Shown here piece after piece: positions 12,906 through 63,151 of a stretch of 64,000 nt of DNA. Origin of the DNA: Pyrinomonadaceae bacterium (GTDB lineage: Bacteria; Acidobacteriota; Blastocatellia; Pyrinomonadales; Pyrinomonadaceae); assembly GCA_050250045.1 (NCBI GenBank), contig JBFWPK010000014.1, forward strand, positions 20,841 to 84,840, read 5' to 3'. The number at the start of each line of letters is the position of its first letter. Within the stretch, counting starts at the first letter, position 1. Below the pieces are notes generated by a model. That model was not told where the DNA came from. It made no database searches and saw only the letters and a list, made by a program, of their open reading frames with translations. The translations under genes and the position numbers were made by a program.

Positions 12906-13136
12906 AGAGTGGTCACCTTCAGGCGCAGAGTGACGACTTTCAGGCCCAGAGTGACGACTCTCAGGCCCAGAGTGACGACTCTCAGGCTCAGAGCGACGAC
13001 TCTCAGGCTCAGAGTGACGACTCTCAGGCTCAGAGTGGTCAGTCTCACGCTCAGAGTGACAACTCTCACGCTCAGAGTGGTCAGTCTCGGGCCCAGAGTG
13101 ACGACTCTCAGGCCCAGAGTGACTGTTCTACCAGGC
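12906..13136. repeat. tandem array, 11 units of exactly 21 bp (consensus AGAGTGACGACTCTCAGGCCC)
   Basis: Counted directly. Most units contain the palindrome AGAGT-GACG-ACTCT plus a 7-bp linker. Both strands read as open heptad-repeat ORFs, which is an artefact. Confidence 0.9.
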
Positions 13137-14697: not shown

Positions 14698-14764
14698 TTT
14701 TGTCTCCTGTAAGTAATTGCTTCGAATGCAGATTTTAGAACAAAGTACCGTTAAATGTCCACGT

Positions 14765-14947
14765 GTCAGTACCGTCGGCGGTAGCCGATGGTTGAAAGTG
14801 CCGCCAGTATAAGTTTGCGAATCGTCAGGGGGCGGCGTTAAACCAGCGGCTACTGCCGCCGATACTGACAAGCGTAAAACCAGCGGCTACCGCCGCCGGT
14901 ACTGACAAGCGTTAAACCAGCGGCTACCGCCGCCGGTACTGACAAGT
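14765..14947. repeat. repeat family A-prime: one inverted copy (14765-14793) plus 3 tandem 37-bp copies (14837-14873, 14874-14910, 14911-14947)
   Basis: Unit is GTTAAACCAGCGGCTACCGCCGCCGGTACTGACAAGC. The inverted copy is GTCAGTACCGTCGGCGGTAGCCGATGGTT. Related to family A through the CTACCGC core and CTGAC end. Confidence 0.85.
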
Positions 14948-15357: not shown

Positions 15358-15446
15358 AATTTCGTTTTGAGTTAAGTTATAGGTTAAGTTCTATTGTGTC
15401 AAGTACATTGGAACGGGGTCGCCGTTCAGTTCGAAAGGAGCCGCAT

Positions 15447-15520
15447 GCACAAGCCCGCACGAAGTAAGGGCGATATGTCCAACGTCCTAGATATCGCCCT
15501 TACTTCGTTCGGGCTTATGC
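15447..15520. repeat. family C palindromic element (about 74 bp)
   Basis: GCACAAGCCCGCACGAAGTAAGGGCGATAT ... ATATCGCCCTTACTTCGTTCGGGCTTATGC, a near-perfect inverted repeat in the divergent intergenic region. Confidence 0.85.
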
Positions 15521-15571
15521 AAGAAGTGCCAGGTGAAAGCGCGCATTGGATCGTGAAGAGGCCCATACAAT

Positions 15572-22382: not shown

Positions 22383-22577
22383 TGTCCCGTAGGGACACCC
22401 GGTAATAGCCCGGCGATTTATCGCTGGGTAAGGCGCGTTGGATTGTGAGTCCCTTGGGGACGGTTGAAGATTCCAATGTTTACGTTGTTTCAGCCATCCC
22501 ATTGGGGACTGGCGCAATCTCCGTCCGTCTTTCCCACCGATGAATCGGTGGGCTATTTTCACACGTCCCTTCGGGAC
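22383..22577. repeat. cluster of short REP-like hairpins (GTCCC-loop-GGGAC class)
   Basis: TGTCCCGTAGGGACA (22383-22397), CCCGGCGATTTATCGCTGGG (22409-22428), GTCCCTTGGGGAC (22449-22461), CCCACCGATGAATCGGTGGG (22533-22552), GTCCCTTCGGGAC (22565-22577). Confidence 0.75.
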
Positions 22578-22771
22578 TCTTTCAGTTTTGACACTGACTC
22601 TAACGGCGTGGCTAGCGAAACCAAGTCTATTCTTATCCACACACTCGCAAAGACTGACCCTCCACGCCTCTGAACGGCGTGCGTTTGCGAAACCGGTGAT
22701 TCCGGTTTGGCAAAGCGCTGTGTTAATCTTTCCGAAAAAATAGTTCGTAGATCGACAACCTAACTAAAAAT

Positions 22772-24743: not shown

Positions 24744-24870
24744 GTCAGAACCGCGTCGAGCGGTAGCGACTGGATTCTTTCATCGCCGCTGCCACAAGAA
24801 CCCAGTCGCTATCGCTCCCGGTTCTGACAATCAAGGGAAGAACCCGGTCGCTGCAGCTTCCGGTTCTGAC
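24744..24870. repeat. three family A elements: inverted (24744-24777), direct (24798-24828), direct (24840-24870)
   Basis: GTCAGAACCGCGTCGAGCGGTAGCGACTGGATTC, then GAACCCAGTCGCTATCGCTCCCGGTTCTGAC, then GAACCCGGTCGCTGCAGCTTCCGGTTCTGAC. They fill the whole intergenic gap. Confidence 0.9.
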
Positions 24871-24876
24871 AAGATC

Positions 24877-25779
24877 ATGAAGATCCTCATCACAGGTGCG
24901 AGCGGGTTGATCGGGACGACGCTTCGGAAATCGTTTGAGGCGCAGGGCCACGATCTTCTGCTTGCGTCACGGAGCGATCCGAAGGACGCGGATCACATCA
25001 AGTGGAACTCGGACACCGGGTTTGCGGACGAGGACCTGCCGCGGCTTGAGGGGTTCGATGCGTTTATCCACCTGGCCGGCGAGAGCATCGGCGGCGGGCT
25101 CCGCTGGAGCGAGGAAAAGAAAAAGGCCATTCGCGACAGCCGAGTGTTTGGAACACGAACGATGATCGAAGCTTTCGCGCGGATCGAGAAAAAGCCGAAG
25201 GTTTTTATCTCAGGCTCGGCCATCGGCTTTTACGGAGATCGCGGTGATGACGTTGTGACCGAGGCCAGCGCGGCCGGCGACACTTTTCTTGCGGAGGTCT
25301 GCAAAGAGTGGGAAGCCGAATCTCGTCGTGCCGAAGACATGGGCATCCGCACCGTTCTTTTGCGAACGGGGATCGTCTTGTCCAAAGACGGCGGAGCGCT
25401 CGCGACAATGCTAACCCCATTCAAACTCGGCGTCGGCGGCGTCGTTGGAAGCGGGAAGCAGTGGATGAGCTGGATCGCGTTGGAAGACGTTATCGGCATA
25501 ATAAACTTCGCTCTCGAAAATGAAAGTTTGCGCGGTGCGGTGAATGTCGTCAGCCCGAGTCCCGCCACGAACGAAGAGTTCACGAAAACGCTCGGCAGCG
25601 TGCTCTATAGGCCGACAATCCTTCCGCTACCCGAATTCGCCGTCAACCTCGTCTTTGGTGAGATGGGCGATGCGTTGCTGCTCGACTCGACGCGCGTCGT
25701 ACCCAAACGACTGTTGGATGCTGGATATGGGTTCAAATTCCCGCACCTCAAGCCTGCTCTGGAAAACGCCTTGTCTTGA
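24877..25779 (+). CDS. TIGR01777-family NAD-dependent epimerase/dehydratase (YfcH-like, DUF1731 C-terminus)
   Basis: MKILITGASGLIGTTL Rossmann start at 24877. The longer ORF from 24715 only reads through repeats. Confidence 0.88.
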   Translation: MKILITGASGLIGTTLRKSFEAQGHDLLLASRSDPKDADHIKWNSDTGFADEDLPRLEGFDAFIHLAGESIGGGLRWSEEKKKAIRDSRVFGTRTMIEAFARIEKKPKVFISGSAIGFYGDRGDDVVTEASAAGDTFLAEVCKEWEAESRRAEDMGIRTVLLRTGIVLSKDGGALATMLTPFKLGVGGVVGSGKQWMSWIALEDVIGIINFALENESLRGAVNVVSPSPATNEEFTKTLGSVLYRPTILPLPEFAVNLVFGEMGDALLLDSTRVVPKRLLDAGYGFKFPHLKPALENALS

Positions 25780-25840: not shown

Positions 25841-26674
25841 TTACAAATGGATAGTGGATAGTGTTTGAGCCAACAGAATCGGGCGGCTTGGAGCACAGTC
25901 GGACTCGAACGGGGCGATCTGGAGGTTCAGCAGGTATTCGCCGTCCGGGACTTCGTTCGGAGCGTAGATCAGTTCGGTAATTGTACTGGTCTTTCTGGTT
26001 TCCGCATTTGTTTCAAAACCCCCTTCGTCAACTTTCCAAAACAGTCGGTGATTTAGGAGCTTGCCGTCATCGAAAATGCGGTCGATCGAAGGCAGATCGG
26101 TGAGCAAATGTTTGATCCCGATCTCGACGATATAACTCATCGCGTCCATCGCAAAATATGGCGGAATATACGACTCGCCGTATTCTCTTGTCAGCTTGGA
26201 ATCGTCGTTTGGAAGCGTGCGGATGACTAAGGCCCTGTCGGTCGCGATGGACTTGTGATCGCCGCGTTCAAAGAACCCAGTCGCTACCGCTCCCGGTTCT
26301 GACAGGGCCGATTCGAGCACCTTTCGGGTTAACACGCTTTCGCCGTCGATCTTTTCTGGTGAGACCGAAACAAGCCGGGCGGGCATTAGCACATCGGGCA
26401 GACAATCGCGGACGGAAATTCGTGCGTGCGTGATGTGGCCGACGCATTCTGTGTGCGTGCCGCTGCAGTGCGGGATGAAAGCGTATTGTTCAAAATTAAC
26501 GCTGCCGCCCCGCCGAGTGTCACCGATCAGCGTTCCGGCTTCGACGGGTTTAGAGGCCGCTCGTTCGACGCCGTAAGCATTCGGCTGCGGCCCGTTGAAA
26601 CGGAGCGGGATCGAGATGTCGATAGGGTCATTCAGATCGTAACTTTTACCGTTGAATTGCAGTGAATTGTTCAT
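25841..26674 (-). CDS. cyclase-family protein, candidate kynurenine formamidase
   Basis: 277 aa. Cyclase-type metal motif region HCSGTHTECVGH. Adjacent to kmo/kynU. Contains a family A repeat in frame. Confidence 0.65.
   Translation of the reverse strand: MNNSLQFNGKSYDLNDPIDISIPLRFNGPQPNAYGVERAASKPVEAGTLIGDTRRGGSVNFEQYAFIPHCSGTHTECVGHITHARISVRDCLPDVLMPARLVSVSPEKIDGESVLTRKVLESALSEPGAVATGFFERGDHKSIATDRALVIRTLPNDDSKLTREYGESYIPPYFAMDAMSYIVEIGIKHLLTDLPSIDRIFDDGKLLNHRLFWKVDEGGFETNAETRKTSTITELIYAPNEVPDGEYLLNLQIAPFESDCAPSRPILLAQTLSTIHL
26283..26313. repeat. family A element inside the cyclase gene
   Basis: GAACCCAGTCGCTACCGCTCCCGGTTCTGAC, translated as SEPGAVATGF. Confidence 0.9.
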
Positions 26675-27309: not shown

Positions 27310-27674
27310 AGGTTTTGGTGCTCGTCGTTGGTGATGTTCGTCTGATTTGAGTCGGCTGGATGAGAAAACTCCACGATCAATTCGCTATTGACCTCAAAAA
27401 TTGTTTTTCCATTTAGCGATTCGATTCCCCAAGGCTTTTTTGTATCAACTCGCGTAGTCAGTGGATTCTGCATAGTCGGTTTATTGAGAACTTCGCAACC
27501 AAGGACTCCATCTACGGGATATTCACTATTTCGATCTAAATTTTCAATGGAAAAGATCGCATCTTTGTCACGGAAAACGTCAACAAATCCACTTGCGTCG
27601 CGGAATTCGCACTCAACAAAGCTAGGACCCGTATCGTCAATACATCTGGTTATACTTACTTTTATCCCAAACAT
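27306..27674 (-). CDS. hypothetical protein
   Basis: 122 aa. AT-richer. Overlaps the kmo stop by 13 nt. No family recognised. Confidence 0.45.
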   Translation of the reverse strand: MFGIKVSITRCIDDTGPSFVECEFRDASGFVDVFRDKDAIFSIENLDRNSEYPVDGVLGCEVLNKPTMQNPLTTRVDTKKPWGIESLNGKTIFEVNSELIVEFSHPADSNQTNITNDEHQNL

Positions 27675-29131
27675 TCGTCAATGTCCTTCAAATCTAGAAT
27701 CACTTCTTTGATATCTATTTCAGCCACGCTTTCAGTGTTCGCACAAACCTGCATTAAAAACCGATCCTGAGCGTTTCCTTTTTCTTTCGCTACAGAATAC
27801 GGCAGATCTTCGCGGAATGTGACCATCGAATATTTCGAGAAATAGTCGGGAAAGGTTTGCTCCAGTTTCGTTTCGAGTTCGCGTTTACGTTGGAAAACCG
27901 GGTCGGCGGTGGCATCTCGCATTTCGTAGAAATTTTCCTCGGCCATGTCGGCTATGGCATCCGTATTTATCTTGCGTAGTTGGCCGTACTTTTCGAACAC
28001 AAATTCCCAATCAACTATAGGCCCAGTCGCTACCGCTCCCGGTTGTGACAAGAGCGAGTCGAGCACGCGGACGTCTTCAAAGGCGCAGTTCATCCCCTGT
28101 CCGTAGAACGGAACGACGGCGTGGGCCGAATCGCCGAGGAGCAGCACCTTGCCTTCGACGTTCCACGGCCAGCATTTAACGGTGCCCAGGTTGCCGGTCG
28201 GGTTGGTGAAGAAGTCTTCGACAAGCGTCGGCATGAGCGGAACGGCGTCGGGGAATTCGCGGGTGAAGAACTCTCTCAGCGAAGACTCATCGTTAAGGTC
28301 CTCGAACGACGGCTCGAAGGCGGAAACACGAGCGGTAGTGAGTGTGTCGTCCGCGGGCGACGCAGAAGAGACACCCTCGCTACCGCTCAGGTTTCCGCCT
28401 GTGTGGGCAAGGAACAGCGTGCAGGTGAAGCTGCCGTCGAAATTCGGCAGGGCGATCATCATGAACTTGTGCCGGGGCCAGATGTGGAGGGCGTTTTTTT
28501 CGAGTTGAAATAGATCTTTGTTCGACCCCGGCAGGACGCCGGCGTTCCGGGGAGGAATGTGAAGTTCCTTGTATCCGTGTTCGAGAAAAACCTGCGACCA
28601 CTGAAATTCAGGCAGATCGCGTTCCATCGCATCGCGTACCGCCGAACCGGCGCCGTCGGTCGCGATAACAGTGTCTCCACGGATCGTTCGACCGCTTGCA
28701 AACGACACTTCGCCGCTGGCAAGGTGGAAATCGGTACAGCGTTCGTTAAAAATAAACTGAACATTCGGATATTTCTCGGCCTCATTCATCAGAGCGATAT
28801 TCAGGCCGGCACGTGAGACCGAATTTATGTATTCGCCTTTGCGGCCGCTGTAGGGGAGCAGTTTTGTTTCGCCAGTCAACGTGTGGATCATTCGCCCGTA
28901 CATCGGCACGGCCTCGGCCAGCATGTATTCATCCATCCCGACCGCGCGCAACGCCGCGATGCCGCGGTCGGACAGAGCGAGATTGATCGAACGCCCGGCA
29001 GCAATAGCTTCGGTTCGCATATCAGGCCGCGCCTCAAAGACGTTGACCGCCATGCCGCGACGAGCGAGATAGATCGCGAGCAGCGAACCTGCAAGCCCAG
29101 CACCAATGATAATCACTCTTTGCTCAGGCAT
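27662..29131 (-). CDS. kmo: kynurenine 3-monooxygenase
   Basis: 489 aa. FAD motif IIGAGLAGSLLAIYLARRG, then DGAGSAVR and LLGDSAHAVVPFYGQGMNCAFED. Carries two in-frame repeat insertions. Confidence 0.92.
   Translation of the reverse strand: MPEQRVIIIGAGLAGSLLAIYLARRGMAVNVFEARPDMRTEAIAAGRSINLALSDRGIAALRAVGMDEYMLAEAVPMYGRMIHTLTGETKLLPYSGRKGEYINSVSRAGLNIALMNEAEKYPNVQFIFNERCTDFHLASGEVSFASGRTIRGDTVIATDGAGSAVRDAMERDLPEFQWSQVFLEHGYKELHIPPRNAGVLPGSNKDLFQLEKNALHIWPRHKFMMIALPNFDGSFTCTLFLAHTGGNLSGSEGVSSASPADDTLTTARVSAFEPSFEDLNDESSLREFFTREFPDAVPLMPTLVEDFFTNPTGNLGTVKCWPWNVEGKVLLLGDSAHAVVPFYGQGMNCAFEDVRVLDSLLSQPGAVATGPIVDWEFVFEKYGQLRKINTDAIADMAEENFYEMRDATADPVFQRKRELETKLEQTFPDYFSKYSMVTFREDLPYSVAKEKGNAQDRFLMQVCANTESVAEIDIKEVILDLKDIDECLG
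28020..28049. repeat. family A element inside kmo
   Basis: GGCCCAGTCGCTACCGCTCCCGGTTGTGAC, translated as QPGAVATGPI. Confidence 0.85.
28319..28399. repeat. family B inverted doublet (81 bp) inside kmo
   Basis: GGCGGAAACACGAGCGGTAGTGAGTGTGTC - 22 nt - ACACCCTCGCTACCGCTCAGGTTTCCGCC. Encodes residues 245-271 (GGNLSGSEGVSSASPADDTLTTARVSA). Confidence 0.88.
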
Positions 29132-29140
29132 CGGTATTTA

Positions 29141-29221
29141 GGCAGAAACACGACCGGTAGGGAGTGTGTCGCTTCCTTTTTCGCCGTCACGGGCACACTC
29201 GCTACCGCTCGTGTTTCCGCC
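29141..29221. repeat. family B inverted doublet in the kynU-kmo intergenic spacer
   Basis: GGCAGAAACACGACCGGTAGGGAGTGTGTC (29141-29170) - 23 nt - CACACTCGCTACCGCTCGTGTTTCCGCC (29194-29221). Confidence 0.88.
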
Positions 29222-29226
29222 TCCCA

Positions 29227-30573
29227 TCACACGCATTCTTTAAGAATCTCTGCGAATTTATTTACATCGCCGAAAGAATTATACAGCGGCACGGGCGCGA
29301 CGCGGATAACGTCCGGTTCGCGCCAGTCGGCGAAAACGCCGCGTGCCGTTATCGCGTCGAACAGAGTTTTGTCCGCATTCTTTACGCGGATGGAAAGCTG
29401 ACAGCCGCGTGCCTTTGGGTCGGAGGGCGTGATGATCGAGATCCGTTCATTGCCTATTTCGTTGATCAGCGATTCCAGATAGCCGGTGAGCTTTTCGGAT
29501 TTTGTTCTTAGGGCCGGCATTCCGGCCTCATCGAAGATCTCCAGCGAAGCACGCAGCGCGGCGAGTTGAAAAATTGGTGGATTAGAGATCTGCCAGCCTT
29601 CCGCGCCTTCAAGCGGTTTGAATTCAGGCCCCATCAGAAAGCGCGTTTCCTTGTCGTGTCCCCACCAGCCGGCGAAACGCGGCAAATCGAACGAATGAGC
29701 ATGGCGTTCGTGTACAAAGATGCCAGCGATGCCGCCCGGACCGGCGTTTAGATATTTGTACGAGCACCACGCGGCGAAATCGACGTTCCAATCGTGCAGC
29801 TTCAGTTCGAGATTGCCTGCCGCGTGCGCACAGTCAAAGCCGACGACGCAGCCTTTGCGATGTCCCGCCTCGGTTATCGCCCGCATATCGAATGCCTGGC
29901 CGGTGTAATAATTGACGCCGCCGAGCAGGATCAAGGCGACGGCATCGCCTTCGCGGCCGATAGTTTCGAGTATGTCATCGGTCCGCAATGTCGATTCACC
30001 GTCGCGCGGTGCGAGTTCGATCAACGAGTCAGAACCGGGAACGATGGCGACTGGGTTCCCTGATGGCGTGGAATCGAAAAACCCAGTCGCTATCGCTCCC
30101 GGTCCTGACATGGGCGCCGTCTTGTAGCCGTGGAAGGCCAACTGTGACTCTACGGCGTACTGATCGGAAGGGAACGCGCCTTTTTCGATGATGATCTTGT
30201 AACGCGCGCGCGTTGGTCTATAAAACGAGATCATCAGTAGGTGCAGATTGACCGTCAGTGAATTCATCGCAACGACCTCGCCTGCTTTTGCACCTACAAG
30301 CCGCGCTAACGGTTCGGTGACGAATTCATGATAGGGAAGCCATGGATGCCTGGCATGCAAATGCCCTTCCACCGCAAGTTCTGCCCAGTCATCGAGTTCC
30401 TGTTCGATATAAACGCGTGCTGTTTTGGGCTGGAGGCCAAGGGAGTTGCCGGTTAGGTAAACAGCCTCATTGCCGTCAACTCCGCGCGGAAAGTGAAAAC
30501 GGCTGCGAAAAGGCGCAAGAAGATCGCCGGCGTCCATTTCAGCAGCGGGTTTGAGTATCTGTTCAGGCATCAC
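29227..30573 (-). CDS. kynU: kynureninase
   Basis: 448 aa. YLTGNSLGLQPK and WCSYKYLNAGPG (PLP lysine region). Carries an in-frame family A doublet. Confidence 0.93.
   Translation of the reverse strand: MMPEQILKPAAEMDAGDLLAPFRSRFHFPRGVDGNEAVYLTGNSLGLQPKTARVYIEQELDDWAELAVEGHLHARHPWLPYHEFVTEPLARLVGAKAGEVVAMNSLTVNLHLLMISFYRPTRARYKIIIEKGAFPSDQYAVESQLAFHGYKTAPMSGPGAIATGFFDSTPSGNPVAIVPGSDSLIELAPRDGESTLRTDDILETIGREGDAVALILLGGVNYYTGQAFDMRAITEAGHRKGCVVGFDCAHAAGNLELKLHDWNVDFAAWCSYKYLNAGPGGIAGIFVHERHAHSFDLPRFAGWWGHDKETRFLMGPEFKPLEGAEGWQISNPPIFQLAALRASLEIFDEAGMPALRTKSEKLTGYLESLINEIGNERISIITPSDPKARGCQLSIRVKNADKTLFDAITARGVFADWREPDVIRVAPVPLYNSFGDVNKFAEILKECV
30028..30109. repeat. family A inverted doublet (82 bp) inside kynU
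   Basis: GTCAGAACCGGGAACGATGGCGACTGGGTTC - 20 nt - AAACCCAGTCGCTATCGCTCCCGGTCCTGAC. Translated as GPGAIATGFFDSTPSGNPVAIVPGSD. Confidence 0.9.
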
Positions 30574-31755: not shown

Positions 31756-33714
31756 ATGAGAAATTCATTCCGTAAGTATCTCGCATTTGTCGCAGCGGCT
31801 TTTGTTTTAGCTTCGACTGTTTTCGCTCAACCGCCCTCGACGGGCGATGTAGAACTGAGGGCACGGCGAAACGCGATCGAGGCCGAGCTGCAATCGGTAG
31901 CTGTTGTCGAGCGCAAAGTGATGGTGACGATGCGTGACGGGAAGCGGATGCAGGCCGATATCTATCGTCCGAAAGACGAAAGCACGAAATACCCGACGAT
32001 CTTTTCGCGGACGCCGTATAACTTTAATTGGTGGGACGTGCGGCTTGGTGCTCCGCGGGATATGACGACGGTGCTTGATGCGGTGAAGCGCGGCTATGCC
32101 TACGTGATAATGAATGAGCGGGGACACTTTTTCTCCGAGGGGAATTACGACATTCTCGGGCCGCCGCTGACCGACGGCGAGGACGCGATCAGGTACATTA
32201 CGACGCAGCCGTGGTCGAACGGCAAGCTAGGCACGATCGGCTGTTCGTCCACCGCCGAGTGGCAAATGGCCGTCGCCGCTCAGGATGTGCCCGGTTATAC
32301 GGCGATGATCGCGCAAGGGTTCGGCGCTGGTGTCGGGCGCGTTGGGCCGTATTACGAGCAGGGAAATTGGTATCGCGGCGGTGCGGTGCAGATGCTTTTT
32401 ATCGCGTGGATTTACGGCCAGCAGAATCAGGTCCGCCCGATGTTCCCGGCTAACACTTCGCAGGAAGATCTGATCCGAGCGTCAAAATCTTTCGACCTTG
32501 CACAACAGCTTCCCCGCGTTGATTGGTCAAAAGCTCTGCGGCATTTGCCGGTCAAAGACATCATCAAGGCGGTTGACGGGCCGCGCGGGATCTTCGCCGA
32601 CGAGATGCCGGTCGCGACCGGCGGGGCGATGATCAAGCGCGCGCCGAACGATCCGGCGTGGTACAAAGGCGGCCTTTTTCACGACAACATGAAGATCAAC
32701 ATTCCGGGTTTTTGGTTCATGTCGTGGTACGACGTTTCGACCGGACCAAACCTCGCCTTGTATAACCATGTTCGAAAAACCGCGCGGCCAGAGATCGCAG
32801 ACCAGCAATACGCCGTCATCGCTCCGACGCTGCATTGCAGCTACACGCGGGCGACCGAGAACACGGTCGTCGGCGAGCGGAGCATGGGCGATGCCCGACT
32901 CAATTACAGCGAGCTGACCTATGGCTGGTTCGATTATTTTCTGAAGGGCCACAGCGAAGGCAACGACATTAAGGCATGGCCAAAGGTGCGTTATTTTACG
33001 ATGGGCAGCAACAAATGGCAGGCCGCCGAGCAATGGCCGCCGGCTGGAGCCGAGCCGATGACGTTCTACCTTTCAAGCGGCGGTAAGGCGAACAGCCTGA
33101 AGGGTGACGGAGCGTTGGCTGCCGCACCGCCTGCTTCGGACGCTCCTGACCGGTTTACTTACGACCCGATGGACCCTGTCCCGTCATACGGCGGAAACGT
33201 TTGCTGCACCGGCAACGCGGTCCAGGGTGGTGCGTTCGACCAGACAAAGATGGAAGAACGCAGCGACATCCTGGTTTACACGACGGACGTTTTGAAGGAA
33301 GGATTCGAACTTAGCGGCCCGATCGATGTAACGCTCTTTGTTTCATCGAGCGCGAAAGATACTGATTTCACCGTAAAGCTTATCGATGTGGACGAGAACG
33401 GCAAGGCATGGAACCTCGACGAGACCATCCAGCGTATGCGTTACCGCGACGGCTACGACAAACCGCTCGCGTGGATGGAGCCAAATAAGGTCTATAAATT
33501 CAAGTTCCAGCCGATGACCACAAGCAACTACTTCGCCGCCGGCCACCGTCTACGGATCGAAATATCATCAAGCAATTTCCCCCGCTTTGACCGCAATATG
33601 AACACCGGCGGCGACAATTACAGCGAGACAAAAGGCATCATCGCGAACAACGCGGTACATCACTCGAAGCAATATCCATCGTCGGTGACGATATCTGTTG
33701 TGAAGAAGAAATAA
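31756..33714 (+). CDS. CocE/NonD-family hydrolase (S15 X-Pro dipeptidyl-peptidase-like), secreted
   Basis: 652 aa. Signal peptide. [23 protein letters not shown] and GCSSTAEW nucleophile elbow. Confidence 0.88.
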
Positions 33715-33722
33715 AAAGATTT

Positions 33723-33796
33723 TGCAGAAGCCCGCACGAAGTAAGGGCGAAATGCGAGGTTGAACGTATCGCCCTTACTTCGTGCGGGCTTCTGCA
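33723..33796. repeat. family C palindromic element
   Basis: TGCAGAAGCCCGCACGAAGTAAGGGCGAAAT ... TATCGCCCTTACTTCGTGCGGGCTTCTGCA, 9 nt after the CocE stop. Could act as a terminator. Confidence 0.85.
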
Positions 33797-44050: not shown

Positions 44051-45592
44051 TCAGATGCCTGTCAGTTTGACGCAAACGTTCTTTTCTTCCGTGAAAAATC
44101 TCAATGCCTCGAAGCCGCCTTCGCGGCCGAGGCCGCTGTCTTTCATGCCGCCGAACGGGGTTCGCAGGTCGCGGAGGAGCCAGCAGTTTATCCAGATGAT
44201 GCCGGATTCGAGTGCGGCTGATACGCGGTGTGCGCGCGAAAGGTTTTCGGTCCAAACGGTTGCCGACAGGCCGTAGCGGACGCTGTTTGCGTAGCCCAGG
44301 ACCTCGTCTTCGGTGTCGAAGGGCATTATTGTGACGACCGGGCCAAAGATCTCTTCGAGGTTTGTACGGCAATCGTGCGGAAGATCTTCTATCACGGTGG
44401 GTTGGATGAACCAGCCGGTGAGTCGTGACTGCTCATCGGGCACACTCCCTACCGGTCGTGTTTCCGCCTTTTTTTCTCTGCGTCTTTGCGACTCTGCGGG
44501 AAGATCTACCGCTTTCCCGCCGCACAATATTGTGCCGCCTTCGCTCTTTGCAAGTTCGATGCATGACGTTATCTTGTCAAAGTGCTGCTTTGAAACTATC
44601 GCACCGACATCGGTGTCGGCATCAAGAGGATCGCCGACTTTTAAGGAAGCAACGCGTTCGACAAAATCGCGTTTGAATTTTTCATATATCGGCCGCTCGA
44701 CAAATATCCGCGAACCGCAGAGACAGATCTCGCCTTGATTTGAGAACGATGAGCGGACGGTAGTCGATAGCATTTGCTCATAATCGCAGTCGGCGAAGAT
44801 AATATTCGGATTCTTGCCGCCGAGTTCGAGCGAAAGTTTCTTGAACATCGGAGCCGCCGTGCGGGCGATCTCCTCGCCGGTCTTTGTGCCGCCTGTGAAT
44901 GAGATCGCCTTGATATCCTTATGAGCAACGATCGCCGAGCCGACCTTTGGGCCCGTGCCGTGGACGATATTCAAAACGCCCTCTGGGAGACCGGCCTCGA
45001 TGCACAGCTTAGACAGCATATAAGCCGTCATCGGCGTGACCTCGCTCGGTTTGGCGACGACCGTGCATCCGGCCGCCAGAGCCGGTGCAATCTTCCACGT
45101 AAAGAGATAGAGCGGCAGATTCCACGGCGAGATGCAGCCGGCGACGCCCATTGGCTGGCGAAGTGTGTAGTTGATCGCCTTAACACCGCCGGGCAGTGAA
45201 GTATCGTGTGATTCGTTTGCCACGTGTATCGCGGCGGTTGCATAAAATCGGAAATTCGCCAGTGCACGCGGAATATCGACAGAGCGCGCCAGCGAAACCG
45301 GCTTGCCGTTATCGACACTTTCGGCCATGGCCAGATCGTCCAGATCACGCTCGATCAGCGTTACCAGTCGCATCAGCGTTTCAAATCGATGTTCAGGCGG
45401 CGTAGCGGCCCACGCCGGAAACGCGGCCCGGGCGGCATCGGCCGCGAGATTGACGTCGCGATCGTCCGAGTCAGGGATCAGTGAATAGACGCGGCCGGTG
45501 GCCGGCTCAAAATTGTCCAGATATTCCGCGGAAGCCGGCGACACGAGTTCGCCGCCAATATAATTTTCGATCGTGAGCATATTTTGAAGCAA
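44051..45592 (-). CDS. NAD-dependent aldehyde dehydrogenase (candidate 2-aminomuconate-6-semialdehyde dehydrogenase)
   Basis: 513 aa. ELGGKNP and FSNQGEICLCGSR catalytic-Cys region. Contains an in-frame family B repeat insertion. Confidence 0.88.
   Translation of the reverse strand: MLQNMLTIENYIGGELVSPASAEYLDNFEPATGRVYSLIPDSDDRDVNLAADAARAAFPAWAATPPEHRFETLMRLVTLIERDLDDLAMAESVDNGKPVSLARSVDIPRALANFRFYATAAIHVANESHDTSLPGGVKAINYTLRQPMGVAGCISPWNLPLYLFTWKIAPALAAGCTVVAKPSEVTPMTAYMLSKLCIEAGLPEGVLNIVHGTGPKVGSAIVAHKDIKAISFTGGTKTGEEIARTAAPMFKKLSLELGGKNPNIIFADCDYEQMLSTTVRSSFSNQGEICLCGSRIFVERPIYEKFKRDFVERVASLKVGDPLDADTDVGAIVSKQHFDKITSCIELAKSEGGTILCGGKAVDLPAESQRRREKKAETRPVGSVPDEQSRLTGWFIQPTVIEDLPHDCRTNLEEIFGPVVTIMPFDTEDEVLGYANSVRYGLSATVWTENLSRAHRVSAALESGIIWINCWLLRDLRTPFGGMKDSGLGREGGFEALRFFTEEKNVCVKLTGI
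44441..44468. repeat. family B element inside the aldehyde dehydrogenase gene
   Basis: CACACTCCCTACCGGTCGTGTTTCCGCC. It lies within an extra segment of about 24 aa (ESQRRREKKAETRPVGSVPDEQS) just before the conserved GWFIQPTV. Confidence 0.85.
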
Positions 45593-45827: not shown

Positions 45828-46002
45828 GATCAGTGGGTAGTGGGTCAGTTTGAAATCGAAATTGGTTCAACTGCACAAGCCCGCACGCAGTAAGGGCGAT
45901 GTCCGGAACGTTGAGTGTATCGCCCTTACTGCGTGCGGGCTTGTGCACTATCCATTCTTTCCAAAATCCGCGAATTGATTTCAAGCTGACCCACTACCGA
46001 TC
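45828..46002. mobile_element. MITE-like 175-bp long inverted repeat with a family C palindrome (45872-45947) at its centre
   Basis: The outer arm GGTAGTGGGTCAGTTTGAAATCGAAATT matches the reverse complement of the other arm, AATTGATTTCAAGCTGACCCACTACC. The inner arm is TGCACAAGCCCGCACGCAGTAAGGGCGAT. Confidence 0.7.
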
Positions 46003-49517: not shown

Positions 49518-50768
49518 CTATTTGATCTTTCCGTACTTACGCAGGACCTTCAGCGTCGGTTCGAGAGGCAGGGCTTCGACGGTCCGGTTTTCTTTGCCCG
49601 TAACGGTTCGAGCTCGGAACAACGAATTATAGATCGCCTCCTCGCTTGCTTCGATCACCGCGAGGAACAGCGGTGAGATCGCGTCGTTGGCAACAACGCT
49701 TGTGCTTCGTGTTCTCGTTCCGGCCGCGAGCGGTTTGATGCGGTTTTCGGCGGCGGTTGAAAATGCTATGGCGTAGTCTCCACTGCCGTTGGTCATTGCC
49801 GAACCGGTCCGGGCGAGGCCGGCCATTGACCGTTCGGCCAGGCGATCGAGCTGCCGATGATCCAACGGCGCGTCGGTCGCGATCACGATTATGATCGAAC
49901 CATCAGCTTTGTCAGAACCGGGAGCGATAGCGACCGGGTTCTTTTCCGGCGAAGAATTGAACCCATGCCCGCGCTCGGGTTTCTGCACCGCTTCCTTTAA
50001 GTAAAACTTACCCAATTCCTCACCGACAGGTGCTCCGTTTATCGTCAAAACACCGCCAAAATTGGACTGAACAAGTACGCCGACCGTGTAGCCTCCGAGC
50101 GATGCCGGCAACTTCCGCGACGCCGTGCCGATGCCGCCTTTCCAGCCGAATGCGACAGTGCCGGTTCCGGCCCCGACCGCACCCTCTTCGACCGGCCCGC
50201 TTTTGGCATTTTTCAGAGCCGCAAATACGTCGTCACGGGTGATGTGCCGTCCGCGGATATCATTCAAAAAGCCATCGTTCGTCTCCGCCACGACCGGATT
50301 TATCGATTGAACATTTTCATTGCCGGGCAGGGCGAGCATGTAATCGAGCAGGAAATCAGCGGTCCGTGGAACGGCCAGTGTTGATGTGAGGATGATCGGA
50401 GTTTCGATCTCGCCGAGTTCATTGACTTGCGTCGATCCGGCGAGTTTGCCGAACCCGTTTCCAACAAATACCGCTCCCGGTACCTTCTCCTGGAACAAGT
50501 TGCCGCCGTGCGGAACTATCGCGGTCACGCCGGTGCGGATGTTCTCGCCCTTTACTATTGTCGTGTGGCCGACCGCTACGCCCACAACATCGGTGATCGA
50601 ATTTAGCGGGCCGGTCGGAAGAACTCCGACGTTCAGGCCGATGTCTCGGGCTCGCGGGCGAGCTTGGGGTTCCAGCCTAAGCTGGCCAGCCGCCGGCGGA
50701 ACAAGTGCCGCAAATAGCAGGCCGACGATCAGAATGATCGCTCCGGCGACGTTCGTCATAATTCTCAT
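49518..50768 (-). CDS. P1/DmpA-family aminopeptidase (Peptidase_S58)
   Basis: 416 aa. Signal peptide. GVAVGHTT and DGSIIIVIATDAPL. Contains a family A repeat in frame. Confidence 0.85.
   Translation of the reverse strand: MRIMTNVAGAIILIVGLLFAALVPPAAGQLRLEPQARPRARDIGLNVGVLPTGPLNSITDVVGVAVGHTTIVKGENIRTGVTAIVPHGGNLFQEKVPGAVFVGNGFGKLAGSTQVNELGEIETPIILTSTLAVPRTADFLLDYMLALPGNENVQSINPVVAETNDGFLNDIRGRHITRDDVFAALKNAKSGPVEEGAVGAGTGTVAFGWKGGIGTASRKLPASLGGYTVGVLVQSNFGGVLTINGAPVGEELGKFYLKEAVQKPERGHGFNSSPEKNPVAIAPGSDKADGSIIIVIATDAPLDHRQLDRLAERSMAGLARTGSAMTNGSGDYAIAFSTAAENRIKPLAAGTRTRSTSVVANDAISPLFLAVIEASEEAIYNSLFRARTVTGKENRTVEALPLEPTLKVLRKYGKIK
49911..49941. repeat. family A element inside the DmpA-like gene
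   Basis: GTCAGAACCGGGAGCGATAGCGACCGGGTTC, translated as NPVAIAPGSD. Confidence 0.9.
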
Positions 50769-59008: not shown

Positions 59009-59249
59009 TGCAAAAGCCCGCTTAAGGTGCAAAAGCCCGCTTAAGGTGCAAAAGCCCGCACGAAGTAAGGGCGAAACATTCAACGCCATGCAGAAGCCCG
59101 CACAAGTAAGGGCGAAACATTCAACGCCACGCAGCGGCCCCGCACGAAGTAGGGCGAAACATTCAACGCCATGCAGAAGCCGCGCACGAAGTAAGCGGCG
59201 AAATATTCAACGTTTCGATCAAGACCTTACTACGTGCGGGCCTGAGCAT
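59009..59249. repeat. tandem array of family C half-elements closed by one inverted arm
   Basis: Two truncated units and four full units of TGCA(A/G)AAGCCCGCACGAAGTAAGGGCGAAACATTCAACGCCA (about 43-bp period), then ..CCTTACTACGTGCGGGCCTGAGCA. Confidence 0.85.
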
Positions 59250-59324: not shown

Positions 59325-59555
59325 AACCATTCTCAGTTAACTAAAACTCATTCCCACAATTGTGAAACTCTTCTGAGAACTCAAAAAGTCACCCTCACAA
59401 CTCCAAAACCCGCTCTCACAATTGTGAAAGCCATTCTCAGTCAACCAAAAGTCGTTCTCAGTTAACCAAAAGCCATTCTCACAATTGTCAGAATCATTTT
59501 CAGTTAACCAAGAGTCATTCCTAGAACTTCAAAAGTCCTTCTCACAGGTCAAAAC
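59325..59555. repeat. tandem array, 11 units of exactly 21 bp (AT-rich; TTCTCA core)
   Basis: Example units are GCCATTCTCAGTCAACCAAAA and CCCGCTCTCACAATTGTGAAA. Units alternate between palindromes TCACAATTGTGA and AGTTAACT. Confidence 0.88.
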
Positions 59556-59598: not shown

Positions 59599-62319
59599 CT
59601 ACTTGAATTCACGAAAGGATTCGAGAATGGCCCCGAAAGTACTTGGGTTGTGTTTTTCAAAGCCTTCTTGATCGATGTATACAAAGTCGTAACTCGTCTC
59701 CGACCGGGCCGCGTTGACATCAGAGCACCACTGCTTCAAGCGGGCCATTTTCTGGGGTAGATCGATCTCTTCGCGGCCCTTTGTCTCTACGATCACGATC
59801 AGGTCGCAGCGGACCTTTACAAGAAAATCAGGATAATAGTTCGAGATATCGCCGTCGGCCTTCACGTAATCCAGTTTGAAATTCACCGCAAAGTAGTTTT
59901 TTGCAAAAGATATTATGTCGTCGCAGCCTTCGAGAAATGTCGCGAATCCAAGCTCGAATCCTTGATCACCAATGATCCGATTAAAAACGCTTTTCTTCGG
60001 GACAAGATACGGCTGGCTTTTTGCGACGAACGGCCTTACATTCCTTAGTTTAATCGAGTCCCGTATCTCAGCCTCGCCTTTGTCTCTGACGGTAAGTTCG
60101 TTGATCCCTTTCTTGAATGCATCCAATGTCGTCTTTGTTGCGGGCATCTCCGAAAGATTGCGCAGTGTGTTCGGATGCTCCAGATCGACGGTTTTTCCGA
60201 AAAGCTGTTCTCCGACAAATGCCTTTACTTTCGGGTACAACGCGTCATATCCACTTACGAGTTTAAGATCTTTCATAACCGTATGTGCAAGGTAGCCGAT
60301 GACACTGCGATAGTCCGCGATCCCGGCTGTGTCGAGCACGACCGTGTGATTGACTTCGCCGGTTGTCATCTTTTTGAAAACGATCTCTCGCTGTTCTTCT
60401 TCTGAGAACTCGTGATATTGAACGATCTCATGGCCTAACCTTGAAACATCGAGTTCCGACAGGTTTTTGTATTCACGATAAACGCGCGGTGAGAGCACAG
60501 GAATTTCGATATCCAATTCGTCGAGGTCCTTTTTCTCGTTTTCCCGGTCAACCTCGACGACTATCGGCTTTCCGCCCTCGCCTCCTTCGCCCATCGGTTT
60601 CCGTTCAAATACAACACCCTCGGCCTGGATCGACTCAACAAAATCCATAAAGGCCTCAGTCCCGATAACGCTAACTTCTTCGTCCGTTTCGCCGGAGTAC
60701 ATTTTCCGAAGTCCGCGGCCAAGCGTTTGTTCGGGCAATATTTTGCTCGTCGCGGCGTATGGCCGAAGCCCGACGATCGTTGTTACGTTCTTAACGTCCC
60801 AGCCTTCTTTAAGCATCATCACCGAAACGATCGCCTTCGCCGGCGAATCCCAACCGTCAATGTTGTTTGCTTGTTCTCGGAGAAGTTTAAGTTCTTCGGC
60901 GCTTCTGCCGCTCGCGGATTCAGATATCTCGCCGTTGCTCTTGGTGTGAATAACGAACGTCGCGTCGCCCGCGAGTTCAGGGCACGTTCCGCGAAGATAT
61001 TCGGCAACGTCGTCGCAGTTCTTCGTATCGTCAGTCATTACGAAAAGTATCGCTTTTTTGCCGGCCTTTTCGTGCTCGTCATACGCTTTTTTCCACTCGA
61101 TGACGCCGAGATCGAGATAATCCGAATACTTCTCGGTATATTTTGCGGTCTGCTTTTCTTGCAGTTTCGCGCGACTCGCGGCGTCGGGCAGGACCGGATG
61201 TTTAACGACATTCTGCGAGATGGCCTCGACAAGAGGATAGTCTGAAATTGTCTGAACAAATATCGCGCCGTTATTGTGTTTGGGCGTCGCGGTCACATCG
61301 ATCTGCAGTGACAGCGCGTCGTCTTTTTGCAGCAGCTTGTTATGAATGTCCTGGATCGATTTGAACCACGCCATCCGCTCGTCGTGAATATGGTGCGCCT
61401 CATCGTTCAGCACCATCAATTCATCGATATCTCGGACGATCATCCCGAGATCGACCTTCGAATCCGTAGTTTTTCCCGTTGGACGAGGGCCGAGAAAATA
61501 GTCCATCGTGTTCTCGTCGTCAAACGACGGCGCCACGTCATCGCCGGAATAAACTCGATGAATGTTTGTCAAAAAAATATTCCCTGTCGGGCGAACGACC
61601 CTCACTTCATCCTGTACGTGAAGCGTAAGCTGAAAATCATCTCGCCAATTTTTGCCGTCATACCCATTGTTCGGCAGAACCGGATCGTGAAAAAAGATAT
61701 CGAGTCCCTTAAAGTCTTTGTAAATACGATCGAGAACGATGATGTTCGGGGCGATGACCAGAAAATTTCGTGACAGCCGCGAATCCGCCTCGTATGTCTT
61801 ATTAAAGAAACTCCACGCCAGAGCAAGGCTCAAAACCTTTGTCTTTCCCGCGCCCGTCGCCATCTTGACGACATAACGCTGCCACGTTTCGGGAAACATC
61901 TGCGCAGTCAGCGGCGCGCTTGGCGCCAACGCCATCAGATCGAATGCGCTTCTTGCCTTCAGAACTTCGTAAAGATAAACGATCGTCTCCAGAGATTCCC
62001 GCTGGGCAAAGTAATACTGAAACTCGAATGCTGGTGCATTTACCTTTTCGATCAGATGCGGTTCGTTGAACCACCAGTTCAATAAACTTCTGCTCGTGTC
62101 CGTCGCTCCCGTATATCCGCTATCGCGAAATTCTTTCACGCGTTTGCGCAATTCCGGAACGAGCGGCGGCATCAATTTCTCCATTGATGTATCGCGCAAG
62201 GTTTCGTCCGCCGGAAACCAGCGGATCGCGGGATCGAGTATCGCGTGCGGCGATTTTGGAAAATCAGGGTGTAATGCCATAGCTGGTATCGGTTCCGTCC
62301 CTGAAAGGGACATATTCAA
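59599..62319 (-). CDS. type III restriction enzyme Res subunit (SF2 helicase plus C-terminal PD-(D/E)XK)
   Basis: Walker A MATGAGKTKV, DEAH-type LNDEAHH, C-terminal YYPDFLV...IVETKG. The true start is possibly MALHPDF at 62280, because the first 13 codons lie in a REP hairpin. Confidence 0.88.
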   Translation of the reverse strand: MNMSLSGTEPIPAMALHPDFPKSPHAILDPAIRWFPADETLRDTSMEKLMPPLVPELRKRVKEFRDSGYTGATDTSRSLLNWWFNEPHLIEKVNAPAFEFQYYFAQRESLETIVYLYEVLKARSAFDLMALAPSAPLTAQMFPETWQRYVVKMATGAGKTKVLSLALAWSFFNKTYEADSRLSRNFLVIAPNIIVLDRIYKDFKGLDIFFHDPVLPNNGYDGKNWRDDFQLTLHVQDEVRVVRPTGNIFLTNIHRVYSGDDVAPSFDDENTMDYFLGPRPTGKTTDSKVDLGMIVRDIDELMVLNDEAHHIHDERMAWFKSIQDIHNKLLQKDDALSLQIDVTATPKHNNGAIFVQTISDYPLVEAISQNVVKHPVLPDAASRAKLQEKQTAKYTEKYSDYLDLGVIEWKKAYDEHEKAGKKAILFVMTDDTKNCDDVAEYLRGTCPELAGDATFVIHTKSNGEISESASGRSAEELKLLREQANNIDGWDSPAKAIVSVMMLKEGWDVKNVTTIVGLRPYAATSKILPEQTLGRGLRKMYSGETDEEVSVIGTEAFMDFVESIQAEGVVFERKPMGEGGEGGKPIVVEVDRENEKKDLDELDIEIPVLSPRVYREYKNLSELDVSRLGHEIVQYHEFSEEEQREIVFKKMTTGEVNHTVVLDTAGIADYRSVIGYLAHTVMKDLKLVSGYDALYPKVKAFVGEQLFGKTVDLEHPNTLRNLSEMPATKTTLDAFKKGINELTVRDKGEAEIRDSIKLRNVRPFVAKSQPYLVPKKSVFNRIIGDQGFELGFATFLEGCDDIISFAKNYFAVNFKLDYVKADGDISNYYPDFLVKVRCDLIVIVETKGREEIDLPQKMARLKQWCSDVNAARSETSYDFVYIDQEGFEKHNPSTFGAILESFREFK

Positions 62320-62378
62320 TAGCGTCGGGTATCACCCGACGAAAGATGTCAAAAAAGGGTTCCGTCCCTGAAAGGGAC
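62297..62378. repeat. REP-like hairpins downstream of the Y1 transposase gene
   Basis: GTCCCTGAAAGGGAC (62297-62311), GTCGGGTATCACCCGAC (62324-62340), GTCCCTGAAAGGGAC (62364-62378). Confidence 0.85.
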
Positions 62379-62382
62379 GAAC

Positions 62383-62835
62383 TTAATCCCAAATATATTT
62401 CTCGTCAAATTCGATCTCGTACTTCTTAAAGAAAACTCGCATTTCGTCCTCAAACAATTTTTTTCGATGGTGCTCCAATTGATCCTCGATATATCGTTCG
62501 ACGTCTCGAACTTGCGTGTGCCCAACTGTGAATGCTGCATAACCGTCCTGCCATGCAAATTTTGTCAACATTCCACCGCCAGTTTTCATCCACTTTGAAG
62601 AATCCCGCTTGATGGCACCGACCAGATCCGGGATCAGGAAATTCTTGCCGACGGAGATCAAAAGATGAATATGATTAGCCGTGCCTCCTGCTTTGAGCAA
62701 TCTGCCTCCAAAGTTGCGGACGATACCGCCGATATAGGCAAACAACTCCGCCTGTTTCTCGGTAGGGATCAGATCAACACGATTCTTCGTTGAGAACACG
62801 ATGTGAAAATACGCGTTGAATATCGTTTGGGCCAT
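62383..62835 (-). mobile_element. IS200/IS605-family Y1 (HUH) transposase, RAYT-like
   Basis: MAQTIFNAYFHIVFSTKNR. HUH motif ANHIHLL. Catalytic Tyr context VERYIEDQ. ATG at 62835. Flanked by hairpin repeats. Confidence 0.85.
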
Positions 62836-62848
62836 CGGTTTTGTGATT

Positions 62849-63151
62849 GTCCCTGAAAGGGAGTCATTCAATAGCGTCGGGTCCAACCCGACGCTAACCA
62901 ATCATAACGCCCGCACGTCCCTGAAGGGGACGAACGGAACGGCGGTGTTATTCGTCCCTTACAGGGACGCGTCTCTCTGTTCCGTCGTGTCGTCGGGATG
63001 CTCCCGACGTTTAAAGATCATAACTCCCGCACGTCCCTGAAGGGGACGAACGGAAACGCCGTGTCGTGTGTCCCTTACAGGGACGCGTCTCTCTGTTGCA
63101 TCGTGTCGTCGGGATGCTCCCGACGCTATTAACTTTGTCCCCGTTGGGGAC
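62849..63151. repeat. REP-like hairpin array upstream of the Y1 transposase gene, including two 116-bp tandem units
   Basis: GTCCCTGAAAGGGAG + GTCGGGTCCAACCCGAC repeats the left flank in direct orientation. Units at 62910-63009 and 63026-63125 each hold GTCCCTGAAGGGGAC, GTCCCTTACAGGGAC and GTCGGGATGCTCCCGAC. GTCCCCGTTGGGGAC is at 63137-63151. Confidence 0.88.

Follow-up and report, generated by a model that had tools for sequence, protein, structure and literature searches.

A 64,000-nucleotide stretch of a Pyrinomonadaceae genome (assembly GCA_050250045.1, contig JBFWPK010000014.1, positions 20,841 to 84,840; hereafter the window) raises the question of how a long inverted DNA repeat came to lie within the reading frame of kmo, the gene for kynurenine 3-monooxygenase (KMO), and how an almost identical repeat came to fill the spacer between kmo and the kynureninase gene kynU. 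We refer to this repeat as family B. With a probability of about 0.8, we consider family B to be a family of repetitive extragenic palindromes (REPs) of the Pyrinomonadaceae, presumably mobilised by a REP-associated tyrosine transposase (RAYT) and tolerated in frame within a loop of KMO. This reading is carried by the identity of the repeat, the covariation of its hairpin, a RAYT gene bracketed by B copies in related genomes (a REPtron), orthologous sites that are empty, filters on reading frame and orientation, and where the loop lies in the protein. The original prediction, made from the window alone, had found both 81-bp doublets, and their positions and sequences stand (the right arm of the spacer copy is as measured in Table 1). 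It had missed a third copy, the REP-RAYT identity and the hot-spot behaviour described below.

The window holds five B arms at no more than three mismatches to a 30-nt consensus, against 0.00 expected from shuffled sequence, i.e., a density of 5 arms per 64 kb. Each doublet measures 30 + 21 + 30 = 81 bp. Between the kmo and spacer doublets, the arms agree in 27-29 of their 30 nt, which makes the intergenic copy, as had been claimed, a true relative of the intragenic one; the two 21-nt spacers are unrelated. A hairpin that could affect translation or RNA stability had been suspected in the kmo mRNA, and on the mRNA strand the doublets fold to -57.7 kcal/mol in kmo (z = -8.5) and -51.4 kcal/mol in the spacer (z = -7.9); the doublet hairpins of the window range from -48 to -58 kcal/mol. 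The kmo doublet is read in frame, its minus-strand translation forming KMO residues 245-271 (GGNLSGSEGVSSASPADDTLTTARVSA).

To define the unit, a degenerate arm pattern was scanned against one genome per species, and the arm statistics given here concern the loci among the matches listed, together with the window. The pattern occurs in at least 109 stretches, nearly all from Pyrinomonadaceae, 'Chloracidobacterium sp.', Blastocatellia or unclassified Acidobacteriota metagenome-assembled genomes (MAGs). Altogether 184 arms are arranged as 100 singlets and 42 inverted doublets, and tandem direct arrays are present in loci L098, L062 and L194. The doublets of these related genomes (n = 42) span 68-135 bp, with spacers of 8-75 nt. 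When the singlets are aligned with their flanks, the unit ends sharply at about 30 nt, (A)GGCRGAAAC...GTGYY, with no conservation beyond. The unit is therefore not the 81-bp doublet, as first proposed, but a 30-nt REP-like stem-loop that is found more often alone than paired. Its consensus, GGC-RGAA-ACNC-GA-S-CGGTAG-S-GA-GNGT-GYC, equals 10 codons.

The hairpin of the single arm is documented by covariation. Across 101 distinct arms, the eight stem pairs are paired in 92.8% of cases; pair 10/25 is A-U (A-T) in 59, C-G in 34 and G-C in 2, whereas at pair 14/21 there are 48 arms with C-G and 37 with G-C. Double-sided changes number 76, compared with 32.5 +/- 3.5 in shuffles (0 of 500 shuffles as high), and the covariation score of 0.328 compares with at most 0.066 for slid partners. 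Because all four combinations of pairs 10/25 and 14/21 occur, the covariation does not reflect one subfamily split. An independent minimum free energy fold agrees, giving a GGC/GCC lower stem, a 4-nt bulge, ACNC/GNGT, tandem G-A, the closing pair and a CGGTAG apex. G-U pairs are common on the written strand (2/29, GU in 55; 1/30, GU in 28; 11/24, UG in 10), and these would be A-C mismatches on the opposite strand.

Related genomes also supply a candidate mobiliser. In L098, six tandem B arms stand ahead of a 194-aa open reading frame (ORF) with the HUH motif NHLHSVV and the C-terminal tyrosine motif DYTLNQQ, and inverted B arms begin directly after its stop codon. Its homologue in L064, bracketed likewise, matches Pfam Y1_Tnp (PF01797) above the cut-off (E = 7e-9); in NCBIfam, the RAYT match to the IS200 model NF033573 is sub-threshold (23.5 bits, cut-off 55). 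A homologue search returned 2,700 relatives, many of them JGI-named 'REP element-mobilizing transposase RayT'. With four further homologues from independent assemblies (L194-L197), the REPtron arrangement, plus arms upstream and minus arms downstream, holds at six of six loci. The gene follows argG in L098, L194, L195 and L197, with a methyltransferase gene next in L098, L195 and L197, and lies upstream of an FAA-hydrolase gene in L196 and L064. This conserved synteny in different MAGs (four and two loci) fits vertical inheritance, as is expected of single-copy RAYTs. The argG-linked and FAA-hydrolase-linked lineages are 63% identical, and only C10-G25 arms occur at the former, A10-T25 arms at the latter, which suggests that enzyme and hairpin co-diverged. 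Two other genes were rejected as B's enzyme. One, flanked by inverted clusters of arms in L062, proved to be a housekeeping gene of MoeA-like type. The other, a 236-aa Y1_Tnp / RAYT-like gene in L039 (5126-5836, minus strand) found by a regex screen for HUH + Y..NP motifs, is flanked by another REP (GCCGGCAGGATGCCGGC; GCCGGCAGGATGCCGGCGTTCC hairpins), so that several REP-RAYT systems coexist in the clade.

Its anatomy, its distribution and the Y1 transposase gene that it brackets mark family B as a REP family, with doublets resembling the REP doublets forming hairpins (REPINs) of other bacteria. The REP/REPIN-RAYT systems of E. coli and Pseudomonas (PMC3116915, PMC5581495) likewise comprise short imperfect palindromes that occur as singlets, long-hairpin inverted doublets and clusters, a Y1/HUH gene bracketed by its own inverted REPs in conserved synteny, and a pair of RAYT paralogues that are each matched by a separate REP variant. 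B differs in its host clade, Acidobacteriota (Pyrinomonadaceae) instead of Proteobacteria, in the roughly 40% of its copies that lie in ORFs, whereas REPINs are described as strongly extragenic, in its very variable dimer spacers, and in a 30-mer that is near-identical across many species whose KMOs are 68-77% identical.

Closer parallels to the intragenic copies exist. In-frame REP dimers encoding 20-30 residues are known from Opitutus, Thauera, Xanthomonas and Rickettsia (the Rickettsia palindromic elements, RPEs), and in one case different REPs occupy about one site in orthologous recB genes (PMC3733652). The GTAG REPs among them (Opitutus terrae, Thauera, Xanthomonas recB) share with B the conserved GTAG, which E. 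coli RAYT cleavage needs, the occurrence as singlets, dimers and clusters, the stem G-T pairs, the in-frame intragenic dimers, the presence of different REPs at about one site in orthologues, and the preference for positions downstream of genes, in convergent or co-directional and seldom divergent spacers (PMC3733652). Unlike them, B carries GTAG in its apical loop, the classical GTAG lying immediately 5' of the stem. Its recurrence in the KMO loop is also far larger (115 of 120 orthologues, at least five families), and its variants sort by reading phase. The RPEs are similar in that palindromes lie in frame in many unrelated intact genes, in surface loops, and also between genes; RPE-4 and RPE-6, which are shorter, have been equated with CGTC-type REPs, a type found without associated transposase (PMC3733652). 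RPEs differ in their hosts, which have reduced intracellular genomes, whereas the 30-nt B unit has a cognate RAYT and an acidobacterial host.

RPE-1 units measure roughly 100-150 bp. The bacterial interspersed mosaic elements (BIMEs) of E. coli, which bind IHF or gyrase, resemble the B arms that form mosaics with other mini-repeats in spacers and in an aldehyde dehydrogenase loop, although the partner motifs differ. With IS200/IS605 insertion sequences, the B system shares the enzyme family (PF01797, and the weak NF033573 match) and the use of DNA hairpins as ends, and the orientation bias of B is compatible with single-strand targets; unlike theirs, B's RAYT is not a multi-copy gene with fixed ends but a syntenic one with variable numbers of REPs around it. 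Literature searches on Acidobacteria, Blastocatellia and Pyrinomonadaceae found no description of these repeats. Intragenic REP insertion is thus already known, and it is its frequency and recurrence that are unusual in the Pyrinomonadaceae.

The KMO segment that hosts the doublet is normally short, as the original prediction had supposed. P. fluorescens KMO aligns along the whole window protein (E = 2e-84) with a gap facing the insert; the window KMO is 100% identical to a Pyrinomonadaceae MAG protein. A metagenome scan for KMO loci gave mostly distant KMOs, which were used as outgroups and not as extra filled sites: about 60 of them have a constant 40-41 residues from PNxDGSF to FPD, with a loop of 4-5 residues, typically GENS. 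Within the clade, the site is essentially empty in orthologues P0011, P0095, P0076, P0086 and P0119. The empty DNA in L002 reads CAC AAA GGC GAG ACA TCA TTT, and filled sites have B arms at that place. Compared with the empty state of orthologues (HK-GENS-F), kmo gained about 28 codons in this event, or had 3 replaced. An AlphaFold (AF2) model of the window KMO (61 orthologues) has a mean pLDDT (predicted local distance difference test) of 83.7 and a TM (template modelling) score of 0.90 to P. fluorescens KMO structures (5x6p). In it, residues 250-269 form a low-confidence coil (pLDDT <50) between strand 235-242 and the next helix, so the insert is predicted to be disordered and to sit in a short solvent-exposed loop after the beta-strand FTCTLFLAH.

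Filling of this loop is the rule in the clade. Among 120 KMO orthologues, 68-77% identical to the window KMO, the loop holds B-type peptides in 54, the SSPPYEGGVAAASADGVV type in 20, the SEPPASAGG..PPAHAGG type in 13, the GENSFEEISRGFTQMNAD type in 5, a family A doublet (see below) in 1 and decayed or composite inserts in 22, and is empty in 5. Therefore 115 of 120 are filled, by B or at least four other repeat families. No orthologue was met that has the same residues without the nucleotide repeat; those with similar peptides also carry it. P0033 and P0062 have one arm alone, and P0029 and P0044 are composites. A second KMO loop (residues ~360-372, window ~28010-28060; empty state LIEKHG-TDW) is likewise refilled by family A and others. 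On the KMO tree, the states of the first loop are scattered among one another (47 Fitch changes, shuffled mean 60); on this ground, and on those of the composite inserts and synonymous-site conservation, one ancient insertion was rejected as the origin. Third-codon identity among six KMO genes with B is 0.85 in the arm and 0.49-0.52 in the flanking invariant protein blocks; since the arms stand so far above their flanks, they are not old neutral relics but are of recent origin, kept homogeneous, or under constraint as nucleic acid. The right arm of the window kmo dimer is G14-C21, as in the spacer copy of the same genome, whereas that of the orthologues is C14-G21, as would be expected if the event had been independent, or the arm refreshed, in this lineage.

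Empty sites exist for the second doublet as well. In L001 and L002, kynU and kmo overlap by 13 nt, without repeat; the window junction has about 100 nt extra, nearly all of it the B doublet. The doublet thus split a translationally coupled gene pair. The ancestral kmo ATG now reads M-R-V-M-GGNTSGSECA...TLPTGRVSA-stop (TAA) through the doublet, and kmo restarts at a new ATG 8 nt beyond it. Gene order around kmo varies within the clade: in L004 (3473-4640), kynU is called as two ORFs (254 aa, Aminotran_5; 114 aa, KYNU_C), with an extra gene between kynU and kmo. In the window, an amidohydrolase (ACMSD-like) gene adjoins kynU on its upstream side.

The third B element of the window, a single arm, lies in another recurrently filled loop, that of the aldehyde dehydrogenase before GWFIEPTV (window ~44400-44510). 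The arm is read in phase 2 as (K)AETRPVGSVP, and a preceding CGCAGAG-type mini-repeat encodes ESQRRREKK. Empty orthologues read GGNQVALEGRCSGGWFIEPTV, and filled ones hold mosaics, e.g., TAETQRRGE + ETRPVGSVP + NPQSAIRNPQ, or A-, P- or Y-type peptides. B arms in general often stand within mini-repeat mosaics, flanked 5' by (CGCAGAGA)n and 3' by (GATTTTG)n / (GATTGCG)n (window 44470-44500 and many other loci, e.g., L012, L036 and L062); the intragenic mini-repeats of such mosaics translate as TAETQRRGE and NPQSAIRNPQ / PKSKIQNPKS.

How common, then, is life inside genes for these arms? When an arm is counted as intragenic if the frame is open for at least 60 codons on both sides, 74 of 184 arms (~40%) are intragenic and 110 lie outside long ORFs. 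The 58 arm-bearing long ORFs form at least 32 unrelated groups, with no common position of the arm. Two phases are mainly translated: phase 0, giving GGN[PLT]SGSEG[VA] with the inverted partner ..TLPTGRVSA, and phase 2, giving [KQE]AETRPVGSV[PS]; the phase that contains TAG is used by 1 of 53 sense arms. Doublet length is a multiple of three in 13 of 16 coding cases and distributed 9:6:11 over the three remainders in non-coding ones. Given this coding-only bias, the exact 27-codon length remarked upon in the original prediction tells which copies survive and is no trait of the element; the element's own contribution to frame-keeping is that one arm equals 10 codons.

Peptide and hairpin both leave traces of selection. 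The base at position 25 sets whether a phase-0 arm encodes Cys (TGT) or Gly (GGT), and pair 10/25 is C-G or G-C in 23 of 28 phase-0 arms but A-T in 83 of 110 non-coding and 24 of 25 phase-2 arms (Fisher p = 4e-9). On these counts the peptide is under selection for avoidance of Cys, while pairing is kept by compensatory change. Single intragenic arms are sense:antisense 38:6 (p = 9e-7), and those between co-directional genes 18:3 (p = 0.0015). Intergenic singlets lie between co-directional genes in 21 cases, convergent in 11 and divergent in 2 (doublets 11, 5 and 2). The sense bias, taken with the written-strand G-U pairs, suggests either that the sense strand is constrained or that it is the strand into which arms insert. 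The hairpins of coding doublets are somewhat weaker than those of non-coding doublets (medians -48 and -59 kcal/mol, p = 0.04), and their two arms mismatch more often; the window kmo doublet is among the strongest of the coding ones.

These observations can be arranged into the following scenario. A cognate, single-copy, syntenic Y1/HUH transposase of RAYT type, its own gene bracketed by B arms, would move the arms. One inverted dimer landed in the KMO loop after FTCTLFLAH. Only the phase in which it lies yields small, hydrophilic residues without a stop codon, so that it is tolerated and is read as a disordered insert of 27 residues. Another dimer landed at the kynU/kmo junction, parting the formerly overlapping genes, and a single arm in the aldehyde dehydrogenase loop. 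The inserts are presumably near-neutral for their proteins, and recurrence in the loop would mainly reflect survivorship in few permissive sites.

Several points weigh against this account. The comparison genomes are all MAGs. A lone arm forms only a weak hairpin (-4.6 to -5.3 kcal/mol, z not significant), and the case for the hairpin rests on covariation, not on single-arm stability. GTAG is near-invariant (columns 17-20), but in an apical CGGTAG loop closed by the covarying pair 14-21. The intragenic share far exceeds that of classical extragenic REP families, and no target-site duplications were seen at the B junctions examined. A tblastn search with the B-associated RAYTs gave no match in the 64-kb window; this genome presumably has such a gene. 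Lastly, 10 of 12 positions are the same in the native loop DNA of empty sites (L122, L129, L131), AAAGGCGAGAAC, and in the start of the arm, AAAGGCGGAAAC, exactly at the junction. This match may be due to chance, but together with recurrence at one loop it could mean targeting rather than pure survivorship.

The same data have been weighed under other explanations. One is that B is a domesticated RNA element whose sense-strand hairpin serves the host, by mRNA 3'-end protection, differential expression of the kynurenine operon or translation pausing; the kmo and spacer copies would then be regulatory, not neutral, which is compatible with a REP/RAYT origin. The sense bias within ORFs and between co-directional genes, the scarcity of arms between divergent genes, the frequent written-strand G-U pairs, arm nucleotides conserved well above synonymous sites and a spacer dimer between two cistrons of one operon are all as expected under it. 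We nevertheless hold it to be unlikely, since the arms lie in so many unrelated ORF groups without common position, the weaker coding-dimer hairpins suggest, if anything, counter-selection in ORFs, and the KMO loop of orthologues holds unrelated repeat families or nothing. On the other hand, arms could be spread or refreshed by template switching or gene conversion, the KMO loop DNA resembling an arm terminus. Such homology-driven copying would account for the 10/12 junction match, for right junctions that differ among orthologues as in imprecise events (..VSA|FD.., ..VSA|SDPAF.., ..VSA|FEPSF..), for the right arm that the kmo dimer shares with the spacer copy and not with orthologues, and for the third-position conservation, which fits conversion. 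It is at odds with the kynU-kmo junction, where no similarity between target and arm terminus was seen, with the unrelated families (Y, P and Q types) in the same KMO loop, and with a dedicated RAYT flanked by arms at every one of the six loci, and it seems distinctly improbable.

Two further explanations fare worse. That GGNxSGSEGx...TLPTGRVSA peptides recur in 54 of 120 orthologues might suggest a functional, anciently acquired KMO segment selected as protein, with the intergenic copy secondary. This is highly improbable and already contradicted: non-coding DNA and other frames of unrelated genes contain the 30-mer too, five orthologues are empty and others hold at least four other repeat families at the site, the states are interspersed on the KMO tree, the outgroup KMOs are without insert, the insert is predicted to be disordered, and the conserved synonymous positions would be left unexplained. 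A classical MITE (miniature inverted-repeat transposable element), i.e., a deletion derivative of an insertion sequence with a DDE transposase and terminal inverted repeats, would also present as an inverted-repeat structure of about 80 bp in several copies. However, B arms are independent units, commoner single than paired, each with its own covarying hairpin; dimer spacers vary, target-site duplications are missing, and the associated gene is of the Y1/HUH and not the DDE type, which leaves this origin a negligible chance. A fixed MITE length of 81 bp was rejected on the doublet spans of 68-135 bp. DNA uptake sequences were rejected on the 30-nt unit, the covarying hairpin and the cognate transposase, and CRISPR was rejected for the tandem B arrays on spacers of only 8-12 nt.

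Family B is not alone in the window (Table 1). The arms of family A (GTCAGAACCGGGAGCGGTAGCGACTGGGTTC) fold like those of B around the apex GCGGTAGC, and both hairpins carry [C/G]CGGTAG[G/C] at the apex. The 12-mer common to the two families, GAGCGGTAGCGA, has nine window copies at no more than one mismatch (0.31 expected). In L102, a third RAYT paralogue, sharing 46% identity with that of L098, is bracketed by an A-like family (GTCAGAACCACCTGCGGTAGCGGGTGGTT), and GTAG is apical in families A and A-like as well. What A and B share as their core is therefore the apical loop, conserved between sister REP families whose RAYTs are paralogues, the lower stems having diverged through compensatory changes. 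Of the superfamily with exchangeable arms that the original prediction had envisaged, the relatedness is borne out by the common apex and the paralogous RAYTs; exchange of arms was not seen. The family A doublet in kynU folds to -60.9 kcal/mol, and another A arm is in frame in a cyclase-like ORF (25841-26674; orthologues annotated PF04199 Cyclase). At 14761-14947, the A-like family forms a 37-nt tandem of three copies plus an inverted copy.

Table 1. Repeat elements of the window and the genes that host them.
Feature	Position	Strand	Remarks
B doublet in kmo	28319-28399		arms 28319-28348(+) and 28370-28399(-), 21-nt spacer; REPIN-like inverted dimer of two REP arms
B doublet in kynU-kmo spacer	29141-29221		arms 29141-29170(+) and 29192-29221(-), 21-nt spacer
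Single B arm, C14-G21 variant	44439-44468	-	inside aminomuconate-semialdehyde dehydrogenase gene
kmo (kynurenine 3-monooxygenase)	27662-29131	-	489 codons, intact; hosts B doublet and family A arm
kynU (kynureninase)	29227-30573	-	upstream of kmo, same operon; TIGR01814, E = 1e-139
Aldehyde dehydrogenase (aminomuconate / hydroxymuconate semialdehyde type)	44051-45592	-	host of third B element
Family A arm in kmo	28019-28049	-	translated SQPGAVATG; second hot-spot loop of KMO
Family A inverted doublet in kynU	30028-30109		in frame; same hairpin architecture as B, apex GCGGTAGC
Family A arms	24758-24887, 26273-26303, 28019-28049, 30028-30109, 49911-49941
Third hairpin repeat family (TGCA.AAGCCCGCACGAAGTAAGGGCGA, loop, complement)	15446-15521, 33723-33796, 45872-45947, 59009-59212

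A third hairpin family has arms that are 94-100% complementary across 28-31 nt and includes the tandem block 59009-59212; one copy begins 9 nt past the end of ORF 31756-33714. In appearance it is a further family of REP/REPIN or terminator type. Other tandem repeats lie at 12919-13123, 59399-59546 and 62291-63125 (21-nt unit x 9.8, 21/63-nt units, 116-nt unit x 1.9, GTCCCTGAAAGGGAC hairpins nearby). An Rfam scan of the window at the gathering threshold gave no match for the repeats; its only two matches, elsewhere, are to the Acido-Lenti-1 RNA (RF01687; 22383-22428, minus strand, and 22533-22578, plus strand; 41 and 53 bits), inverted and about 105 nt apart. Together with the KMO identity to a Pyrinomonadaceae protein, these RNAs mark the source as an acidobacterium of the Blastocatellia. 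No tRNAs were found in the window.

A wider proposal, which we put forward tentatively and hold to be rather unlikely, is that a REPIN-RAYT system may here have moved from intergenic DNA into genes. Its 10-codon, sense-oriented units with two stop-free, disorder-friendly frames and with variants that keep the hairpin while changing the peptide would, together with sister families, systematically colonise and re-colonise the same permissive loops, possibly guided by target-arm similarity. If true, this would make the system a continuous source of loop-length polymorphism and intragenic RNA hairpins proteome-wide, rather than of occasional accidents.

REP/REPIN-RAYT systems have mainly been studied in Proteobacteria and seen as extragenic, and the present one places a well-defined family and its RAYT paralogues in the abundant, little-studied soil Acidobacteria. 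What stands out is that about 40% of the copies are translated in genes, that two KMO loops and one aldehyde dehydrogenase loop are repeatedly filled by different families, and that selection on the peptide (Cys avoidance) and on the hairpin (compensatory pair) is visible together. Such inserts inflate apparent protein divergence, put spurious "lineage-specific motifs" into alignments and the models trained from them, break MAG assemblies, and can uncouple overlapping genes such as kynU/kmo. The system also amounts to a natural map of the insertion-tolerant loops of enzymes, and it makes the target and strand choice of RAYTs directly testable.

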